Below the pieces are notes generated by a model that saw nothing but the letters and a program-made list of their open reading frames with translations, was not told the origin of the DNA and did not search any database. Of a stretch of DNA of 64,000 bases, positions 15,304 through 49,090 are shown piece after piece (the stretch's first letter is position 1; every line of letters begins with the position of its first letter). The DNA comes from a virus, in the IMG/VR virus record IMGVR_UViG_2974496990_000001, positions 47,606-111,605 of that record; one strand, given 5' to 3'. A program made the position numbers and the translations under genes.

Positions 15304-15558
15304 TTAAGGATAGAACGGAGTCAAAGACCAAGATTCTTTAGAAACTTTGTCGGCGAAAGCCATCATTTCTTCGATTTGACGCAGACGTTGGTCCGCATAA
15401 TCTTCTTCACCTTCTTCCTTACATGCTTCAAGGTCTTCTTCGAGATATTTCAAGTACTCGTTACAAATCTTGTTGACCTTTTCTTGAAAGTCCATCAGAC
15501 CCGCTACAGTGCTCATCAGTATTTCTCTTCTGGCTGGAAAACTGCACGGCATGCCCAC
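15304..15558 (-). CDS. Acidic hypothetical protein (vs.3 position)
   Basis: 84-aa ORF; true start may be the internal MSTVAG. Confidence 0.65.
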   Translation of the reverse strand: MGMPCSFPARREILMSTVAGLMDFQEKVNKICNEYLKYLEEDLEACKEEGEEDYADQRLRQIEEMMAFADKVSKESWSLTPFYP

Positions 15559-15791
15559 ATAGAGGCTTCTTTCAGTTTCTCTTTAGCGATACGCATAGCA
15601 TCACAGGCAGACAGAGCTTGGTCTAGTTCATTCTCGGACAAGCCTTCGCTGTTGACATAGACTTCAGTGAGCTCTTCGTCTAGGGTTTTAAAAATTAGAC
15701 CAAGACGAACTTCAGCATCTTTGATAGCATTTACTTTACCGATTTTATCTTCGGTATGTGGACGATAACCCTTAATATCTTCAATTGACAT
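15516..15791 (-). CDS. acb2: Anti-CBASS cyclic-nucleotide sponge Acb2 (T4 Vs.4 homologue)
   Basis: IEDIKGYRPHTEDKIGKVNAIKDAEVRLG...KLKEASMWACRAVFQPEEKY is near-identical to recalled T4 Vs.4. Confidence 0.9.
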   Translation of the reverse strand: MSIEDIKGYRPHTEDKIGKVNAIKDAEVRLGLIFKTLDEELTEVYVNSEGLSENELDQALSACDAMRIAKEKLKEASMWACRAVFQPEEKY

Positions 15792-16020
15792 AAGGCACCT
15801 CTTCATCGGTTTCTTTATCATATTCGACCAAGCGAATAGGTTCATTCACACCATAACCACGAGTAGAAATATAAGTGGTAGCATCTTCCCACTTCATAGT
15901 TTCTTCGTTCCAGACACCATTCTGGTGAGCTTCCATAAAGTCTTGCTCACCTTGGTTACTGAACCAAGCACAAAATGATTCCACTAAATGTGGCGCGCAT
16001 TCGATAATAATTTTCGCCAT
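15781..16020 (-). CDS. Hypothetical protein (vs.5-like)
   Basis: MAKIIIE...FSNQGEQ, GGAG SD. Confidence 0.7.
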   Translation of the reverse strand: MAKIIIECAPHLVESFCAWFSNQGEQDFMEAHQNGVWNEETMKWEDATTYISTRGYGVNEPIRLVEYDKETDEEVPYVN

Positions 16021-16334
16021 GTTGGCTCCAAACAAATAATCTTACGATCGTAAGTGATAAGGCTTGAAGTTTTGATACCCTTACAAGGGCCAGAGATAAA
16101 CTCTACTTCAAACCACGGATGCTCATTCATCAGACCAAGGTCTGGTGCTGTGCAAGTGAATAATGAGCCCTTAAAAGGCCCATCTAAAAATCGATGAAGA
16201 CGAGGAGGCAAATGAGTTTTGCCTGAGAAATTAATATGAGCCAGCTTAATTAGTATCTCAACGTTGCATTTACCCGAATCAATAAAGAAACGGAGCCATT
16301 CAGAAGCATTTTTAAAGCCCATATAATTCATCAT
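15984..16334 (-). CDS. Hypothetical protein (vs.7 position)
   Basis: 116-aa ORF in the operon. Confidence 0.65.
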   Translation of the reverse strand: MMNYMGFKNASEWLRFFIDSGKCNVEILIKLAHINFSGKTHLPPRLHRFLDGPFKGSLFTCTAPDLGLMNEHPWFEVEFISGPCKGIKTSSLITYDRKIICLEPTWRKLLSNARHI

Positions 16335-16852
16335 TGTATTCCCATCACAAAGAAAAGAGGATATTTGGCGCCACTTGTACGGGTAGCCAGTTTTACGTTG
16401 TCTTCATACGCCTTATAGAACTTGTAGATTTCAGGCATCTTTGAACAAGGTTCATCAATTATAACTAAGACACGTGAAAGCGAAGTACCACGATAAGGTC
16501 TGTCGCCAGAATCAGACAGGAAGCTACGCATTGAATGCGAAAATATTTGCAGTGGATTTATTTTAACATACTTATGCATGCATTTAATACGAATACGGTC
16601 TTCTGTCGCTTTAGCATAAGAGCTATTATAAGCCAAACAAATTACTGTACCACCTTCGTCAATCCAATCTGCAGCAAATAATGCTACGGCCTCGGTTTTA
16701 CCGGTTTGGCGCCCTGCATCAAGACGAAGTGTACAATATTCTTGCATATTTGCTATACGGTCTTGTTCGTATTTTTGATTACTTAAAACATCGTCAGCAT
16801 GGGCATGAAACGCATGCATCAGGGTCAAGTATGGAGCTGTAAGATATTTCAT
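16331..16852 (-). CDS. vs.8: Vs.8-like P-loop protein
   Basis: LRLDAGRQTGKT Walker A-like and VIIDEP Walker B-like; start moved to MKYLTAP. Confidence 0.7.
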   Translation of the reverse strand: MKYLTAPYLTLMHAFHAHADDVLSNQKYEQDRIANMQEYCTLRLDAGRQTGKTEAVALFAADWIDEGGTVICLAYNSSYAKATEDRIRIKCMHKYVKINPLQIFSHSMRSFLSDSGDRPYRGTSLSRVLVIIDEPCSKMPEIYKFYKAYEDNVKLATRTSGAKYPLFFVMGIQ

Positions 16853-17124
16853 TTTTAGATTCTCGGTTGGCGGGCCATTCCTTGGCACATTATGGTCCAT
16901 TCGATACCACGTGTAAACCCCTTACCGTCGCGGACTGGCCTTATTACAGGCGGGAAAGGCCCATCTAATGAGAGGGTTGGTTCACCTTTTTTACAGCCAT
17001 CGTGATTGATGGGACCCTGATTGTAACTGGCTTTACCGCGCTTGGGCTCGACCTTTTTACAGGTACCAGAAGCTGCTTCACTCAGAGGACACGACGTTCA
17101 TGAGGAGAGGCCCAGGTTAGCTTT
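16853..17124 (-). ncRNA. Candidate structured RNA or long leader between denV and vs.8
   Basis: 272-nt GC-rich gap with several hairpins and a duplicated 30-nt motif. Confidence 0.5.
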
Positions 17125-17541
17125 TTAGGCATAGATAGCTACGCCATAATGTTTATACCACTGAGGCTTTTGAGCAATTTTTTCATCCAGACGTTCCTGA
17201 GACAAACGAAGAGCACGATTGTTTGGAATATAATCGTTGCGCCATTCAGCCGGAATGTCAGAGATATCCTGGACCGTAGTGTCCGAGATTTTGAAACCAC
17301 GTTTTAAGCATTCAGCAATTAACTCAATTTGACGTTTATGCAAGAACTCGAGTTTATTGTAGAAGAAAGTGACATGACCAGAACCCAAGATGAAGAACTC
17401 AGAGATTTTGAAGTCACGAACCTTTTTACCATTTTGAACATGCTTACGAACGGCACCAAACACACGAGGCAATTCACGATACTCAGCCATCAAGTGTTGG
17501 TCTGCAAGTTCAGAAACGAGAGTTAAGTTAATACGTGTCAT
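17125..17541 (-). CDS. denV: Endonuclease V, pyrimidine-dimer DNA glycosylase
   Basis: MTRINL...[14 protein letters not shown]; 138 aa from the SD-supported start. Confidence 0.96.
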
Positions 17542-17571
17542 TTTAGTAGTCTCCATGTTTTGTTGAAGACT

Positions 17572-17600
17572 ACTATATCACACCTATCTAGGTTGTAAAC
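17572..17600 (-). promoter_or_regulatory. Early promoter of denV
   Basis: GTTTAC...TATAGT. Confidence 0.75.
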
Positions 17601-17601
17601 C

Positions 17602-17889
17602 TTATTTTGTCAGGTCTTGAATTTTTGAAATAAGCTTATCTTTCTTAATGCCTTTATGATAGTCTTTACCAACCATCATGTAGTAAGTACCCTTAGTTGG
17701 GTCGTAGTTAATAGATACGCGAGTACCATTAACATCTACATCACGCTGGTTCAGAACACGGCTTACACGACCGAATGCTTTAGCAAGATCGGACTCAATA
17801 GCTTCAACACCGGCGCGTGCGCCTGCTTCTAATTCTTTGCCGGACATTTCGCGTTTGGCTTCGTTGATAAATTCATTATAAGTTTTCAT
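17602..17889 (-). CDS. Internal head protein (capsid-targeting sequence)
   Basis: N-terminal [10 protein letters not shown] matches the T4 CTS; lies at the ipII/ipIII locus. Confidence 0.8.
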   Translation of the reverse strand: MKTYNEFINEAKREMSGKELEAGARAGVEAIESDLAKAFGRVSRVLNQRDVDVNGTRVSINYDPTKGTYYMMVGKDYHKGIKKDKLISKIQDLTK

Positions 17890-17897
17890 TTTGTTCC

Positions 17898-18173
17898 TTA
17901 TTTCTTAGAATAATCTGCCATCAGAGCAGCGACATCACTCAGTTTCTTGCCGAACAGATAATCAACTTCATTACCTTTCTTATCAACGATCTGCCACTGA
18001 CCAGAACCTTTGTTGCCGAAGGTATAATCGCCTACTTTATAAGAAAATCCACCGACTTTCTTGATCGGAGTAAAAGTGAAACCACCTTTCTTAGCCAGGA
18101 ATTCCATACGACGCAGGTCATCAGCGTCTTCGTTTAACTGGGCTTCGGTGATAAATTCATTATAAGTTTTCAT
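17898..18173 (-). CDS. Internal head protein (capsid-targeting sequence)
   Basis: Start moved to [10 protein letters not shown] (CTS). Confidence 0.8.
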
Positions 18174-18657
18174 ATGCTTTCCAGGTTCCTGTTTTGAAAG
18201 TTGCAATCACGCGACGAGCGCGATTTGGAGTTTGAGTTTTATACCAACGTGAATCGGCCAGCTCAATTGCTGCAGCGTCCCACTGTTTTGCTTTCAGAAG
18301 ACGCATACCTTTAGGGAAGCCGGCAACACCAGCTACACCCATCTGGAATACCATGTTAATTAATGCACAACGACGAACTTCATCAAGTACATCATAAACT
18401 GGTTTCAGGGTAGCATTAGCTAATATGCCTTTACGAGCCTTTTCTACAGAACCATTAAACAATTCTTCAGCTTCACGTTGTGTAATACGACCATCACATA
18501 TACGACCCATCAATTTATCTAAAGCATCACGAGCGACGTCTTTAGATGGGTTCTTAGTAATCAGCTGGCCTATACCGATGGTCCAAAAGCCTTCGGTGTC
18601 TTTATACAATTCTAATTTGCAACCTTCGTCGATACGAAGCATGCCAAAAATGTCCAT
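18160..18657 (-). CDS. e: Endolysin, T4 lysozyme
   Basis: [22 protein letters not shown] (catalytic E11/D20/T26), [10 protein letters not shown]. Confidence 0.97.
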
Positions 18658-28209: not shown

Positions 28210-28285
28210 TGGCGGACCTAACGAGATTCGAACTCGTGACGCTCCCGTGACAGGGGAGTATTTTAACCGCTGAAACTATAGGTCC
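28210..28285 (-). tRNA. tRNA-Asp(GTC)
   Basis: Full cloverleaf, anticodon GTC, encoded CCA. Confidence 0.95.
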
Positions 28286-28456
28286 GGATTGCGCCCATCT
28301 TGTTGTGGTATTAGGCCATACCTTTCGGCTGGGTACTTCCAGGGAACAGAGCTTGGACGACTTAAGGGTGTACATCCATCTGGGCTTAGAGTCGTCTTAC
28401 AGACACGAGTATTATTCCAACTCTACCACATCACCAGCTTGGTCCCTCTTGTTTTC
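28286..28456 (-). ncRNA. Candidate pseudoknotted RNA between tRNAs
   Basis: Stems GACGAC/GTCGTC, AGGGAC/GTTCCCT and crossing TGTGGTA/TACCACA. Confidence 0.5.
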
Positions 28457-28505
28457 TGGCAGGCGCTTGAGGAATCCACCGCTCTACCAACTGAGCTAAG
28501 CACCT
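28457..28505 (-). pseudogene. tRNA with a 27-nt internal deletion (probably derived from tRNA-Trp)
   Basis: AGGTGCT acceptor, intact D-arm, GTGGATT-CCTC, AGCGCCT-G-CCA; 49 nt; anticodon 3' arm and most of the T-arm missing. Confidence 0.75.
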
Positions 28506-28508
28506 AAT

Positions 28509-28584
28509 TGGGGTGACCTATGGGACTTGAACCCATGACTACAAGAATCACAATCTTGAATTCTACCAACTGAATTAAGGCCAC
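28509..28584 (-). tRNA. tRNA-His(GTG)
   Basis: Cloverleaf, anticodon GTG, C73, CCA. Confidence 0.93.
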
Positions 28585-28617
28585 AGCAATGTTCACTCAA
28601 ATGAACGAACATTAATC

Positions 28618-28693
28618 TGGCGGATGTGCACGGATTCGAACCGCGGACCAATCACTTAACGGGCGACCGCTCTACCAACTGAGCTACACATCC
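28618..28693 (-). tRNA. tRNA-Asn(GTT)
   Basis: Cloverleaf, loop CC-GTT-AA, CCA. Confidence 0.9.
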
Positions 28694-28694
28694 T

Positions 28695-29222
28695 TTATCT
28701 TGCAGATTTTATTTTGTTTTCTTTAAATAGGTCGATAATAGAGTTAACATCGCCTTTAATCCACTCACCATCAGCATTTAAAGCTTTATGGAAAGAAAAC
28801 TCTTCTTCAAAACGTTTATCACTGAAATAGTAACATTCTAATTTATAATCACGTAAAGGGCAGTAGGATTGATAAGTGTTCAACCTATCATAAACATCCA
28901 CTGTAGAACCTATTTTATACCATCCTTCAAAAGCAGGATTAGTTACGCAATAAATGAAACCTTCTTTAATACCTTTAGAAGAATTACCATTTCTGAAATA
29001 CTTTACACGCAACAACGATAACTTGGTGAAGTTCACTTGTCGTGAAATCAATTTATCAGACTTTCGTGAAGCAGTGTCTGTATACTGGAGCTTAAAATTA
29101 GGATGAATATATTTGAAATAAATGTATTTAGCGAACTCAGTATTTATATCAAAATCAATCCCACTAATACCTTCTTCATTAAGATAAGCACTATATTGAT
29201 TAATTATTTTGGCCTTATCCAT
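28695..29222 (-). CDS. GIY-YIG (T5orf172-type) homing endonuclease, SegB-like position
   Basis: GFIYCVTN...WYKIG...DRL...GEW; AT-rich; inserted between tRNAs. Confidence 0.8.
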   Translation of the reverse strand: MDKAKIINQYSAYLNEEGISGIDFDINTEFAKYIYFKYIHPNFKLQYTDTASRKSDKLISRQVNFTKLSLLRVKYFRNGNSSKGIKEGFIYCVTNPAFEGWYKIGSTVDVYDRLNTYQSYCPLRDYKLECYYFSDKRFEEEFSFHKALNADGEWIKGDVNSIIDLFKENKIKSAR

Positions 29223-29238
29223 ATTCTTCTCATAAATT

Positions 29239-29316
29239 TGGTAGGACGTGAGGGATTTGAACCCATCGACATCTCGATTAAAAGTCGAGTGCTCTAACCA
29301 GCTGAGCTAACGTCCT
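29239..29316 (-). tRNA. tRNA-Lys(TTT)
   Basis: Cloverleaf, anticodon TTT, CCA; one extra nt in the T-stem region. Confidence 0.92.
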
Positions 29317-29328
29317 TCTTAATTCTAT

Positions 29329-29565
29329 TTATTCAGTATATCTCTTAAACTGTAAAGCAAAATCTTCATCAACTTTAGTTAAGAAGTGTCCTGCCTTAAA
29401 TCGTTTAGAGCTACCTTCAACTTCTACACCGTATCCGTTCTTACCAAGGACTCGACCAACTCGCATTTCGCCAGGGTCGCCCATTGAATTACAACGAACA
29501 CCGTACAGAACAAAATCATTTTCGAATACCGGAGCATTTTTCCGGTCAGTAATTAATTCTATCAT
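29329..29565 (-). CDS. Small SH3/KOW-like hypothetical protein
   Basis: 78-aa ORF; start site uncertain because it overlaps the putative Pm. Confidence 0.6.
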   Translation of the reverse strand: MIELITDRKNAPVFENDFVLYGVRCNSMGDPGEMRVGRVLGKNGYGVEVEGSSKRFKAGHFLTKVDEDFALQFKRYTE

Positions 29566-29582
29566 ATTAACCTTAAAGCATA
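29556..29582 (-). promoter_or_regulatory. Putative middle promoter
   Basis: TATGCTTTA-N12-TAGAAT. Confidence 0.55.
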
Positions 29583-30028
29583 TTACGTTTTAAGTTTTCA
29601 CGAACTCGATAAAGATTTGAACAGAATTCCTGTTCAGTCAAAACAGTTTCGTTCTTTTTCGACTTACCCATCGAGTGAGTTAATGTAGCGTTCTGCGTAG
29701 CCAGGAGCGCTCTCTGGAACCCTTCATTCAAGGCTAATTGATTATATGCTCGTTCGATAAGAAGCGTATAGGCGTCACTCTGGCGTTGCATAGGCACACC
29801 TTTCCAGTATAATGTCTGGAGTCGCCACCAATTCTTTTTCTTACCTTTGAACTTAGCTTTCTTACCAACTAGAGTACAAACATGTTCCTGCATTTCTACT
29901 GAAGAAAATTTCAGTGATTGCAAAAAGCCTTCCATCGAAGCACATTGTACACCGTCAATTTCAAAAGCATGAGGTGCAAAGTTACTTAATGCAGATGAAG
30001 GATAACCTGCACCAGAACCGATGTCCAT
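29573..30028 (-). CDS. NADAR-family (gp30.3-like) ADP-ribosylhydrolase
   Basis: ALSNF..HAFEIDG...SMEGFLQSLK...LYWKG...THSMG...LTEQEF, similar to recalled T4 gp30.3. Confidence 0.8.
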   Translation of the reverse strand: MDIGSGAGYPSSALSNFAPHAFEIDGVQCASMEGFLQSLKFSSVEMQEHVCTLVGKKAKFKGKKKNWWRLQTLYWKGVPMQRQSDAYTLLIERAYNQLALNEGFQRALLATQNATLTHSMGKSKKNETVLTEQEFCSNLYRVRENLKRNML

Positions 30029-30249
30029 TATTCATATTCCTTTTCAAGAAGGAAATAGTAGATATCATCATGGTCGGTGATAACGTTTTCAAACCAATGC
30101 TCGCGTTCTTTTACAAGAGTCGGTCCTGAAGTCCAATTCCCACATACAAAATATTGCACGCCTTCACGGTCTTGGAAGAATACGGCTTCAGAATGTCCGC
30201 CGTCTTTCCATTCGATAATTGCATGTCCTAATGGATATTTTTTAATCAT
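30028..30249 (-). CDS. Hypothetical protein
   Basis: 73 aa, GAGG SD. Confidence 0.75.
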   Translation of the reverse strand: MIKKYPLGHAIIEWKDGGHSEAVFFQDREGVQYFVCGNWTSGPTLVKEREHWFENVITDHDDIYYFLLEKEYE

Positions 30250-30269
30250 ATTTTCCTCACATTAAAAGT

Positions 30270-30379
30270 TCACAGCGGGGTGGATTCGAACCACCAATAT
30301 TAAGTCACTCATACACCAAGCATGCTAGGGCACTTACCCCGGACGGAATCGAACCGCATCTACAATACCTATCGCCGTG
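30270..30379 (-). ncRNA. tRNA-mimic RNA with two T-loop hairpins
   Basis: Acceptor CACGGCG/CGCTGTG, terminal T-arm GGTGG-TTCGAAT-CCACC, internal GCGG-TTCGATT-CCGT; no anticodon arm. Confidence 0.6.
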
Positions 30380-30381
30380 TC

Positions 30382-30458
30382 TGGTGGCCCCATCCGGACT
30401 TGAACCGGAAACCTACCAGTTATGAGCCGGGCGCTCTAACCAATTGAGCTATAGGGCC
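30382..30458 (-). tRNA. tRNA with CAT anticodon (Met, or more likely Ile2)
   Basis: Cloverleaf, CAT anticodon, GGCCCT acceptor, A73, CCA. Confidence 0.9.
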
Positions 30459-30919
30459 TGAATAATTTGTTTACCACGTTTAAATCTGAATGTGCTTGTC
30501 TGTGAATGACAATTCGGACATAATATCCTCAAATTAGAATACAAATGGTTTTTAGAATTACCATCAATATGGTCTAATTCACACTCTATAGGCTTAGAAT
30601 TCCATTCAGAAATTCCGCATTCTTCACATTCGTTCTTTTTAAGACCTTCAGAATACAATCGCTTTTTAAGTTTATACGATTGATATTGTGGATGAAGACC
30701 TTTCAAAATTTCATCAAGAGGTATTGTCTGTTTTGAATACTCAGACTTATCTCTTTTTATACCAGTTCGTCCTTTATTAGGTCGGTATAACCCATAATGA
30801 ACGGCATGTTGTTTAAATGTTCGGTGGTGGCATCCTATTAAAGAACAAGCTGCAGCCATAGAACAAGTAGAGTTTATAGCATGCTCTATTTCTTCTTTAC
30901 TATAAGTTAGTGTTTTCAT
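30449..30919 (-). CDS. HNH homing endonuclease with N-terminal HTH
   Basis: CEECG...ELDHIDG...NLRILCPNCHS. Confidence 0.9.
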   Translation of the reverse strand: MKTLTYSKEEIEHAINSTCSMAAACSLIGCHHRTFKQHAVHYGLYRPNKGRTGIKRDKSEYSKQTIPLDEILKGLHPQYQSYKLKKRLYSEGLKKNECEECGISEWNSKPIECELDHIDGNSKNHLYSNLRILCPNCHSQTSTFRFKRGKQIIQAL

Positions 30920-30923
30920 AATT

Positions 30924-31012
30924 TGGTACGGGTGACGAGATTCGAACTCGTAAGAGCTTAAGCCCTATGGCATTTTAAGTGCCATGCGTACTGCCAATAC
31001 CGCCACACCCGC
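30924..31012 (-). tRNA. tRNA-Leu(TAA)
   Basis: Class II cloverleaf with long variable arm, anticodon TAA, CCA. Confidence 0.92.
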
Positions 31013-47276: not shown

Positions 47277-49090
47277 TGAAACAAAATATCAAAATTGGTA
47301 ACGTAGTAGATGACGGTACTGGTGACTACCTTCGCCAAGGTGGCTTAAAAATTAATGAAAACTTTGACGAGTTGTACTATCAATTAGGCGATGGTGCTAC
47401 ACCTCATGCCGCCGGTGCTTGGAAGAAACATTCGAGCGCTACAAGTGCAACTTTAGATGCAGAGTTTGGCCACAGCTACACAATTGACACTACTCCTGGT
47501 CGTTGCACAGTTAAACTCCCTAAAGGGACCGCAGCAGAATATAACTTCGTAATCCGTCTGCGCGACGTTTATTCTACTTGGCAACTTAACCCAGTTACTA
47601 TTCTTCCTGCTACCGGTGATACCATTAAAGGTTCTCCTAATGCAGTAGAAATTAAACGTAACCTTTCAGACCTTGAATTGGTCTACTGTTCTCCTGGTCG
47701 TTGGGAATACATTAACAACAAATCAATCGACCGTATTGATAATAATGACGTTGCAACAGTAGCTTCCCAGGAATATATTGCGACTGAAGGTCAAACTGAC
47801 TTCATGAATATATTCCCGGCTCATGGTTATAACCCTGTGAACCTTAAAGTCTATCATCGTGGTAACGTTCTGTTCTACGGTAAAGATGGTATTTTCGATG
47901 CAACGAATGCTGAAGTAGGTTCACCAGGAACGGCGCCTGGACAACTTATTGCATATGATGGTAAAAACATCAGACTGCGTAATGCGTGTAAAGCAGGCGA
48001 CACAGTAATCATCGTATCGTATATGGATGGTCTCGGCCAATGGCGTAGTTCTTATAATCGCCGTCAGGTCCGTGTACTTGATTCGGCCAGAACAAACAAA
48101 ACATCCGTAAATGGTTCTGTTATTGTTGATGACCTGGCTAACAAACTGATTTACACAGTAGAAGAACTTGGCATCAATGCAAGTCAGCCAGTTAACCCTA
48201 ATGCGTGTGAACTGACCATTAACAGTACGCTTCAAAACCAGGCAGGTACTGCAGGTCTTCCATTATTCCGTTGTGAAGGTGCCGAAGGTGAAACTGAAGA
48301 AGTATGTTTTGCTAATAATGGTACTTGGGTTTATTCTGCCACTGACTTCGTATTTGAAATGGACGATACGGGTCTTAAAATTGAATCGGTTCGTTTTGAT
48401 AAGCCTTTAGAACATGATGATGTTATAGGTCTTATTTGGTATAACAATAACATCGGTACTACTCTTGAGATTGAAGAAATCTTGGCGGTAACCGATGATC
48501 GTTATATTTCAGGTACAGAGCCTATTACTCTGACTGGCCAGGTTCGAATCACTGATTTAGATAATCCATTTTCTCCTAATGTGGAAGCTGTAGCCGAAAC
48601 AGAATTTAAACCGAGCTCTGTGGGTGCTTTATTTGAACTGTTTTATCCAGTAGGAACCGTATATGAAAACACGGTGAACCCAAATAACCCTTCAACATTT
48701 ATGGGCTTTGGTTATTGGAAGAGATTAGAAGATCGTGTTCATGTTGGTTGGTCTGCTGATGCAGGTACCAAATTTAACCTGAACAATAACGACCTTGATT
48801 CGTTTGGTAATCCACGTGCTACGGCTGGTGGTACTGGCGGTTCTACAACCGTTACCTTGAAATCTCAGAATATTCCTAAATTACTTACTGATGATAAAGT
48901 TCTTATCGTAGACCCTAACGGTCCTATTATTGTAGGTGGTTGTCAGTTTGACCCTGATTCACAAGGTCCTGCTTATACTAAATACCGTGAAGATTACGCT
49001 ACTATTAACAAAATACAAGACCCGGTTGCGGTGGCAGTTGATACCATGAACCCGTATCTTGTTGTTCATCGTTGGGTGAGGGTTTCTTAA
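47276..49090 (+). CDS. 10: Baseplate wedge and tail pin gp10
   Basis: MKQNIKIGNVVDDGTGDYLRQGG. Confidence 0.95.
   Translation: MKQNIKIGNVVDDGTGDYLRQGGLKINENFDELYYQLGDGATPHAAGAWKKHSSATSATLDAEFGHSYTIDTTPGRCTVKLPKGTAAEYNFVIRLRDVYSTWQLNPVTILPATGDTIKGSPNAVEIKRNLSDLELVYCSPGRWEYINNKSIDRIDNNDVATVASQEYIATEGQTDFMNIFPAHGYNPVNLKVYHRGNVLFYGKDGIFDATNAEVGSPGTAPGQLIAYDGKNIRLRNACKAGDTVIIVSYMDGLGQWRSSYNRRQVRVLDSARTNKTSVNGSVIVDDLANKLIYTVEELGINASQPVNPNACELTINSTLQNQAGTAGLPLFRCEGAEGETEEVCFANNGTWVYSATDFVFEMDDTGLKIESVRFDKPLEHDDVIGLIWYNNNIGTTLEIEEILAVTDDRYISGTEPITLTGQVRITDLDNPFSPNVEAVAETEFKPSSVGALFELFYPVGTVYENTVNPNNPSTFMGFGYWKRLEDRVHVGWSADAGTKFNLNNNDLDSFGNPRATAGGTGGSTTVTLKSQNIPKLLTDDKVLIVDPNGPIIVGGCQFDPDSQGPAYTKYREDYATINKIQDPVAVAVDTMNPYLVVHRWVRVS

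Follow-up and report, generated by a model that had tools for sequence, protein, structure and literature searches.

What is encoded in the 272 nucleotides (nt) that separate the genes denV and vs.8 in a T4-type phage? The question is raised by IMG/VR record IMGVR_UViG_2974496990_000001, which derives from such a phage with a genome of 177.6 kb and of which positions 47,606 to 111,605 were analyzed as one stretch of 64,000 nt, referred to here as the window. Coordinates are those of the window, and all features described in it are on the minus strand. The gap lies between the denV stop codon (TAA, 17127 to 17125) and the vs.8 ATG (16852) and has a GC content of approximately 0.50, compared with approximately 0.40 in the surroundings. 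We describe here that this interval (16853 to 17124) contains two RNA units in tandem together with an inserted hairpin and a 3' domain and that it has homologues in more than 1,000 phage records. In our reading, the two units belong to an undescribed phage RNA family, which constitutes an autonomous, cotranscribed, and possibly host-protein-binding module. Taken as one statement, this reading is in our judgment evenly balanced between right and wrong; its parts differ in strength, and it is nearly certain that the minus strand specifies a real structured RNA. The comparative data presented below demonstrate the fold, its conservation, its tandem state in this phage, and its independence of vs.8. 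What is new is an explicit model of the helices P0, Pc, and P1 with counts, the universality of this model across lineages, the two-unit architecture, and the separable 3' domain.

Two tandem units in a non-coding gap

The core of the element is a 49-nt three-way junction. A covariance model of this core (R1, built on alignment A3) matches the window at 17024 to 17072 (67.1 bits; E value, 2e-19) and at 16913 to 16959 (54.3 bits; E value, 4e-15), with the next-best match reaching only 9.4 bits, and these are the only two copies in the entire 177.6-kb genome. The original prediction, which had been made from the sequence alone, placed a motif twice on the minus strand of an unusually long, GC-rich gap. 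A scan with the IUPAC pattern of this motif gave four matches compared with 0.43 expected, two of them at the predicted sites, and both of these sites are R1 matches. A partial third copy that had been proposed at 16984 to 16998 is not matched by R1; this segment corresponds to the 3' end of the inserted hairpin, Hi, and the 5' arm of P0 in unit 2 (AAAGG, 16989 to 16985).

Unit 1 (17016 to 17123) is a complete core unit without the 3' domain. It begins 1 nt past the denV stop codon and was aligned with 22 homologues in the curated alignment A4. Its helix P0, which covaries among the homologues, is formed by AAGCU (17119 to 17123) and AGCUU (17070 to 17074). The loop of P0 holds Pc-a (CCUGG, 17112 to 17116), which pairs with UCAGG at 17016 to 17020 and whose central pairs occur as two to four Watson-Crick types, and the long hairpin H1 (17075 to 17111), with a lower stem GCCUC/GAAGC, a middle stem CUCA/UGAG, and an upper stem GAAC/GUCC. 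The junction core (17024 to 17072) is made up of P1 (CUGGU, 17065 to 17069, with A 17032 and CCAG 17027 to 17030), hairpin HA (17051 to 17064, loop GUAAAA), hairpin HB (17038 to 17047), and GGUAA (17033 to 17037). Unit 2 (16906 to 16989) has the same strand order. Here, P0 pairs AAAGG (16985 to 16989) with CCUUU (16955 to 16959), Pc pairs ACCA (16978 to 16981) with UGGU (16906 to 16909), and a short hairpin, H1' (16960 to 16976), takes the place of H1; its core (16913 to 16959) contains P1 (CCC, 16952 to 16954, with GGGG, 16918 to 16921), HA (16938 to 16951, loop GUAAUA), HB (16927 to 16935), and GGUAA (16922 to 16926). Both units thus have the features by which we define the family, namely, P0, Pc, the P1/HA/HB junction with its GURAWA loop, and GGUAA.

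The two units differ by compensatory changes in P1 (CUGG/CCAG versus CCC/GGG), HA (ACCU/AGGU versus GCCU/AGGC), and HB (GC..GC versus GUC..GAC), and unit 2 of Karamvirus myPSH1140 differs from unit 2 of the window by further compensatory changes in HA and HB, which argues that both units are under selection for structure. The 4-bp hairpins with GUAA(A/U)A loops that had been predicted to covary between the copies are therefore the HA hairpins, and they covary across homologues too (A-U, G-C, and C-G). Likewise, the suggested CCAUC/GAUGG stem is real: it forms Hi (CCAUC-AAUCAC-GAUGG, 16997 to 17012), which is replaced at the same place by CCACC/GGUGG in locus L001 and by CUAGC/GCUAG in locus L014. 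A proposed long-range GGGCC/GGCCC pairing, on the other hand, is not conserved in homologues, and its bases are engaged in the pseudoknot arm and the lower H1 stem (17116 to 17107) and in the 3' hairpin (16886 to 16874). In relatives such as L014, unit 1, Hi, and the 3' domain are present and unit 2 is absent. A unit seems to have been inserted or duplicated between Hi and the 3' domain to give the tandem form. Dosage can readily be compared between the naturally occurring forms with one unit and with two.

A translated ORF (open reading frame) had been named as an alternative source of the conservation. No conserved ORF was found in the gap; homologues differ by 1-nt insertions or deletions that break any reading frame (for example, in HB of RB69), and paired deletions in the H1 stem are a further sign against coding. 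The frame in phase with vs.8 is open in T4 and closed in the window, and RB69 and S16 are annotated with a short Vs.8. Judged from these sequence features, the stretch is non-coding, and the coding extension of vs.8 annotated in T4 has no counterpart here. A cmscan search of 16000 to 18000 against Rfam 15 with E values of up to 10 returned only two chance matches, which were outside the gap or below threshold, and at the gathering threshold the whole window yielded only tRNAs; the earlier statement that the RNA could not be assigned to a known family therefore holds. ARAGORN identified six tRNAs at 28210 to 31012 and no tRNA or tmRNA at 16853 to 17124. The folding energy of the single sequence was not below that of shuffled sequences (z = +0.42 for the minus strand and -0.63 for the plus strand), and hence, support for the RNA comes from comparative data only.

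A pseudoknotted fold supported by covariation

The structure was derived from 53 distinct full-length T4-type sequences, alignment A4 (23 sequences; 32 pairs, those of the pseudoknot among them), and representatives of other lineages. From 5' to 3', the fold consists of P0a, a linker with Pc-a, the optional hairpin H1, P0b, P1a, and HA (stem NCCU/AGGN, loop GURAWA), followed by a CGA-type joiner, HB, the invariant GGUAA, P1b, a short joiner, and Pc-b, which pairs with Pc-a. Since Pc-a is located inside the P0 loop and Pc-b past the junction, the fold is a pseudoknot.

In A4, 89.1% of the cells are paired, compared with 22.6 to 44.1% when the 3' partners are slid by one to three columns. Both sides have changed in 61 cells, a value reached by none of 500 shuffles (19.0 ± 3.2), the covariation score is 0.232 compared with 0.064 in shuffles, and 10 pairs covary. 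All helices take part. At one position of Pc, for example, the pair is C-G in 12 sequences, A-U in 4, U-A in 4, and G-C in 3, and at the next it is G-C in 14 and C-G in 7. The closing pair of P1 is U-A (10 sequences), A-U (5), U-G (5), or C-G (3); that of H1, in which 98.8% of the cells are paired, is A-U (12), C-G (9), or G-C (1); and the inner pair of P0 is G-C (12) or C-G (8). The P0 arms occur as AAAGG/CCUUU, AAAGC/GCUUU, GGGAA/UUCCC, GGGAG/CUCCC, UGCAA/UUGCA, and others, and a compensatory deletion of one pair has produced CUA/UAG in H1 of L037 and L030. When the Pc arms of 17 distinct pairs were tested in a fixed register, 3.47 of the 4 central pairs formed, compared with 2.17 for cross-matched arms (0 of 5,000 shuffles reached this value). 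For the core alone, R1 collected 90 matches from 88 sources (52 distinct sequences), and none of 500 shuffles reached the covariation score of this alignment, which is model fitted. The predicted structured, duplicated minus-strand RNA with covarying stems is thus borne out by A4 and R1, with covariation in every helix.

Every lineage has P0 and Pc, whose sequences differ and whose strand order is constant. The order P0a, Pc-a, P0b, junction, Pc-b was confirmed by script in 16 loci from five lineages, while two vequintavirus-type loci were read by eye, and in all 16 loci checked P0b begins 10 nt before HA (11 nt in two jumbo-type loci). The fold is specific to the minus strand, as G-U pairs such as the U-G pair in P1 fit only that strand. 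It is defined well enough for compensatory T4 mutants, pull-downs, and cleavage or read-through assays.

Several other pairings were considered and discarded. RNAalifold, applied to a MAFFT alignment, paired CCUCUCC with GG...GGG; sequences of the CUGG/CCAG type break this pairing, and the bases that precede HA and follow GGUAA covary perfectly in another register. In the 3' domain, a local hairpin GGU...ACC gave way to Pc, the only one of the two pairings that is conserved, and for an H1 loop base that seemed to covary with two other columns, the closing pair of the lower H1 stem offers a better explanation.

Homologues in T4-type phages and the vs.8 gene model

BLAST searches of phage records gave 404 matches with the window sequence as the query and 1,072 with the RB69 copy, and the matched phages infect Escherichia, Klebsiella, Shigella, Enterobacter, Salmonella, Yersinia, Citrobacter, and others. 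In T4-type phages, the RNA is always located upstream of vs.8 (which is present in 1,005 phage records), whatever the upstream gene, which is denV in the window and an internal head protein gene or another small ORF in RB69, S16, and JEC. A protein-based search for the locus yielded just one locus. Most genomes have a single unit of approximately 150 nt; the elements of the window and of myPSH1140 are approximately 110 nt longer and hold the second core, and the window query was covered to at least 80% in just 17 records. The nearest records to the window are Klebsiella phage KLB31, whose Vs.8 is 99.4% identical, and myPSH1140. Across genera, the RNA is approximately 77 to 88% identical and the Vs.8 proteins are approximately 40% identical; the RNA is more conserved than the surrounding proteins.

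In the T4 genome (NC_000866), the sole R1 match is at 64855 to 64903, inside the annotated vs.8 ORF, and the RNA element is annotated as the first ~46 codons of a 219-amino-acid Vs.8 protein (coding sequence 64253 to 64912; locus L063). The T4 vs.8 coding sequence appears to be overextended by ~46 codons, with the conserved Vs.8 beginning at MRTFLTGPYL. The long form of vs.8 is also annotated in myPSH1140. Thus, although T4 is among the best-studied genomes, the RNA is unannotated there and buried in an overlong ORF, and the present data correct the gene models for the T4 vs.8 start and the long ORF of myPSH1140.

The element is followed in T4-type phages, and only in these, by a 3' domain (16874 to 16901 in the window), which is conserved in T4-type homologues and consists of AAUGGAC (16895 to 16901) and the hairpin GCCA-AGGAA-UGGC (16874 to 16886), with two ANGGA motifs. 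The hairpin ends 21 nt before the vs.8 ATG and covaries (GCCA/UGGC versus GGCA/UGCC). In Jiaodavirus-type loci (L022, 10150 to 10800, minus strand), a gene for an internal protein with a capsid-targeting sequence (MKTYKEFITEAK...) has been inserted so as to separate the RNA from vs.8, and the half-domain AAGGAC..GUGCCAAGGAAYGGCCC occurs twice, at the end of the element and directly before vs.8. This duplication around the inserted gene indicates that the 3' domain either belongs to the gene start or acts as a joint in recombination, with the core staying upstream. The 3' domain is a separable add-on of T4-type phages, and the duplicated half-domain looks like a recombination joint for internal-protein cassettes.

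Occurrence outside T4-type phages

The same core and fold are found, as one copy per genome, in Vequintavirus (phage EmilHeitz) and similar metagenomic contigs, in a 360-kb jumbo type, and in three further metagenomic types. In addition, 115 Rheinheimera phage records match the core region by BLAST with 87% identity (MK719701 and following; in phage Barba near 47.9 kb). The Rheinheimera matches extend the family past the phages of Enterobacterales. With the two forms of T4-type phages, the RNA is therefore common to at least seven lineages of virulent gammaproteobacterial phages. The strict core pattern had no match in 185,579 prokaryote species genomes, and BLAST with the core found none in 5,426 complete E. 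coli genomes. The RNA belongs to virulent phages and not to hosts or prophages, and its wide distribution among phages together with its absence from bacterial genomes points to a function that matters in lytic infection and has moved between unrelated phages.

Outside T4-type phages, the copies scanned for tRNAs (contig ends excepted) lie inside tRNA arrays or beside them and share their strand; the EmilHeitz copy, for instance, is approximately 570 nt upstream of a tRNA-Arg gene. Some forms are closed by an extra terminal stem that covaries (GUUGUGAC/GUCACAAC versus GUUGUGAA/UUCACAAC). No Vs.8 homologue was found in two complete non-T4 carrier genomes. As the same fold occurs among tRNA genes in at least six other phage lineages that lack vs.8, the RNA is likely an autonomous module and not a switch specific for vs.8. 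The original prediction had tied it to the operon from vs.8 to vs.4 (Acb2). This is wrong, as the same core occurs in the tRNA arrays of unrelated phages, and the tie is further undercut by the two complete carriers without Vs.8 and by the internal-protein gene that intervenes in some T4-type phages.

In loci L015, L017, L038, and L040, a repeat resembling the ToxI antitoxin and its mimics (AGGTGATTTGCTACCTTAAGTGCAGCTAGAAAT) is found 110 to 230 nt downstream of the RNA core. The loci stem from metagenomic contigs of phages that have a 128-kb phage as a relative, and the repeat is part of the same non-coding array. In the vequintavirus-type loci L074, L084, and L095, the repeat UAGAGGGCUUGAUAGUGC/UAGAGGGCUUGAAAGUGC flanks the RNA on both sides, and L084 has a good promoter, TTGACA-17-TAAACT, between the RNA and the tRNA array.

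Relation to known RNAs

No published description of the RNA or its motif was found in the literature, a search that did not extend to a catalogue of 10,006 candidate viral RNAs from 2023; with no Rfam family or paper found, the family is undescribed. T4 itself encodes two RNAs of a similar kind, rnaC and rnaD (species 1 and 2 RNAs), which are non-coding, approximately 120 to 140 nt long, and located in the tRNA gene cluster, as are the non-T4 copies of the new family. They differ from it by locus and sequence, the sole R1 match in T4 (64855 to 64903) being outside the tRNA region. ToxI and pseudo-ToxI are also phage-borne RNAs and can be tandem. ToxI units are 36 nt long, present in multiple copies, and processed by ToxN, whereas the units described here are approximately 110 nt long, do not resemble ToxI in sequence, have no toxin partner, and are single copy in nearly all genomes. 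A ToxI-like array would consist of short direct repeats of ~34 to 45 nt next to a gene for an endoribonuclease toxin; the window has two diverged ~110-nt units with denV and vs.8 as neighbors.

The HA hexaloop GUAAUA is identical to the hexaloop of 23S rRNA helix 44 (1093 to 1098, in the L11/thiostrepton region), which we take as a lead only. The stem and junction are unrelated to those of helix 44, and the new family tolerates GUAAAA, GUGAAA, and GUGAUA. We also considered resemblances to lambda boxB, the anticodon loop of tRNA-Tyr, the sarcin-ricin loop, the 11-nt tetraloop receptor, and the T-arm and rejected them, as their registers misfit.

A possible stable, protein-binding RNA

How might the RNA act? 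We tentatively favor a stable, protein-binding RNA that acts in trans, although we put the chance of this somewhat below even. The module would be cotranscribed with its neighbors, and its invariant unpaired nucleotides (the HA loop, CGA, and GGUAA) would bind a conserved gammaproteobacterial host protein. The stable RNA may then act, for example, as a decoy or titrator of this protein, and Karamvirus-type phages, with their second unit, would deliver twice the dose. Consistent with a stable RNA are its gene-like position in tRNA arrays, the fact that the long forms have closed ends, the doubling in the window, the horizontal spread among unrelated phages of related hosts, and the pseudo-ToxI neighbor in one lineage. 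A more specific version, which we consider unlikely, is a horizontally mobile, RNA-only module for counterdefense or host takeover, in which the invariant junction titrates a host RNA-binding nuclease, an immune sensor, or another conserved RNA-binding protein of the host. Phages would place such an RNA in islands of tRNAs and non-coding RNAs beside decoys such as pseudo-ToxI, and doubling in Karamvirus-type phages would serve dosage. If this were true, T4 would carry an overlooked functional RNA gene within its annotated vs.8 ORF.

A number of observations weigh against a stable RNA acting in trans. Contigs assembled from four RNA-seq runs of T4-like infections (four studies) span the element and vs.8, with upstream continuation in three; these contigs run through denV, the element, and vs.8 and do not show a discrete stable RNA. 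Assembled contigs cannot show RNA ends or levels, which applies equally to one contig from a single study that ends approximately 2 nt before the 5' arm of P0. The T4-type copies lack the terminal stem that closes some other forms and are squeezed in between a stop codon and the start of vs.8, an arrangement that fits a role in cis too, and the strict linkage to vs.8 in approximately 1,000 T4-type genomes could mean a shared function there. The host binding partner is putative. Furthermore, most loci were fetched by an HA/HB sequence pattern, so that the invariance of bases in these hairpins is partly ascertained; copies found by BLAST show the same invariance. Relatedness of the sequences can inflate the contrast with shuffles, a concern that is answered in part by the slid controls and the independent sets of compensatory changes.

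One alternative is a leader of vs.8, namely, a riboswitch or a protein-binding operator (for example, for CsrA on the ANGGA motifs) that controls translation of vs.8, with tandem units as in glycine aptamers. It is an improbable explanation for the family, even if several features of T4-type phages speak for it. The RNA is strictly upstream of vs.8 in these phages, and the loop of the 3' hairpin presents AGGA(A) 20 to 30 nt from the start codon; its ANGGA motif may resemble the CsrA consensus. The half-domain stays beside vs.8 despite the insertion of an internal-protein gene, an argument that fits the 3' domain only; in the same L022-type phages, a whole gene separates the core from vs.8. In S16, the hairpin loop is without GGA, and among tRNA genes the core is found without vs.8 altogether. 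Tandem glycine riboswitches and three-way-junction aptamers do resemble the element in having two homologous junction units in a 5' leader and conserved junction nucleotides, but there is no Rfam riboswitch match and no evident expression platform, the family mostly has one unit, and many copies precede no ORF. Vs.8 is a terminase-ATPase-like protein that is toxic when coexpressed with the Avs2 sensor (bioRxiv 10.64898/2026.04.30.721860), so that tight control of its synthesis would make sense; this preprint does not mention the RNA. Still less credible, and largely refuted by the covariation, is the absence of any RNA function, with the conservation reflecting a DNA-level feature (an early promoter or a joint at which internal-protein cassettes recombine) or a small protein. 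A promoter-like TTTACA-17-CATAAT sequence in unit 2, the duplicated half-domain that flanks the inserted gene, and the annotation of the stretch as the Vs.8 N terminus in T4 could be read in this way. Compensatory changes in six helices, including arms approximately 100 nt apart, G-U pairs that fit one strand, and frame-breaking insertions and deletions argue otherwise, and T4-type copies have no match to the promoter-like sequence, such sites being no commoner than in shuffles.

There are two further explanations. One, which we regard as possible at rather long odds, is that the nascent RNA acts in cis as an antiterminator by modifying RNA polymerase or blocking Rho and so allows transcription through long stretches with little or no translation, namely, arrays of tRNAs and non-coding RNAs elsewhere and the early vs.8-regB block here. 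The model would be the putL and putR elements of phage HK022, which are likewise RNA-only phage elements, located on the sense strand ahead of transcribed blocks and conserved among enterobacterial phages. Indeed, the new RNA is on the same strand as the untranslated arrays and often upstream of them (~550 to 600 nt before the first tRNA in the vequintavirus type and 200 to 340 nt in L071 and L088), directly follows a promoter-like TGTGTATAAACT in the lineage with the ToxI neighbor, is indifferent to the identity of the downstream gene, and is present as one copy per genome, and invariant single-stranded nucleotides would suit the binding of a conserved machine. In several lineages, however, it lies in the middle of the array or after it (in L012 after five tRNAs and in L078 1.2 kb after twelve), the long forms, with their closed terminal stem, resemble an excised stable RNA, and no terminator is evident downstream in the window. 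The put RNAs, which bind the zinc-binding domain of the RNA polymerase beta' subunit and thereby promote read-through of terminators, are approximately 70 nt long and form two stem-loops in a V with a triplex in stem I, compared with 110 to 150 nt and a three-way junction plus pseudoknot, often internal to tRNA arrays, in the new RNA; because put has neither a junction nor a pseudoknot, any likeness is functional only. Less probable again is a role in RNA processing: as a new self-cleaving ribozyme or as a folded signal for host RNase P, E, or III, the element would cause polycistronic transcripts or tRNA precursors to be cut at its 5' edge. The order P0a, Pc-a, (H1), P0b, P1 domain, joiner, Pc-b corresponds to P1-P2-P3-P1-P4-J4/2-P2 of ribozymes resembling that of hepatitis delta virus (HDV), with their nested double pseudoknot and a variable domain between P1 and P2. 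The unit also starts at the upstream stop codon in the T4 type and directly after a tRNA in L012, L098, and L103, and the HDV-like theta ribozymes also adjoin phage tRNAs and have been proposed to process their 3' trailers. HDV-like ribozymes cleave themselves at the 5' end of P1. Yet the catalytic cytosine that opens J4/2 is missing: the joiner starts with U (UUUACAU in the RB69 type, UUACAAU, or UAAAUA in the T4 type) or is absent (L042 type). No GG follows P0b to form P1.1, only one pseudoknot being seen in the 16 loci; the first pair of P0 is A-U or G-C and not G-U; the hairpin in the place of P3/L3 varies and is optional; the dispensable P4 has its counterpart in a conserved three-way junction; and no Rfam ribozyme model matches with an E value of up to 10.

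Neighboring genes and other features

On the minus strand, the gene order is denV, the 272-nt gap, vs.8, three small ORFs, and regB. The upstream neighbor denV (17125 to 17556) encodes endonuclease V (Pfam Pyr_excise; E value, 4.6e-14), and the downstream neighbor vs.8 (16331 to 16852) encodes a P-loop, terminase-ATPase-like protein of 173 amino acids with a weak AAA_30 match. One of the three small ORFs, at the vs.4 position (15516 to 15845), has an Acb2/Tad1 hairpin domain (E value, 7.7e-17), in agreement with its earlier designation as Acb2. Upstream of denV, two small ORFs (17602 to 17889 and 17898 to 18206) are internal head protein genes; both start with MKTYNEFI..., the capsid-targeting sequence of T4 internal proteins.

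The tRNA cluster of the window (28210 to 31012) encodes tRNAs for Asp, His, Asn, Lys, Met, and Leu; some of its gaps are long, and it has no R1 core match. The promoter-like TTTACA-17-CATAAT sequence (16889 to 16917) overlaps unit 2 and the 3' domain and matches the consensus at 10 of 12 positions, although promoter-like sites are as frequent in shuffles of this region and this one is absent from T4-type copies. Transcription from it would give a vs.8 mRNA that begins at the 3' hairpin.

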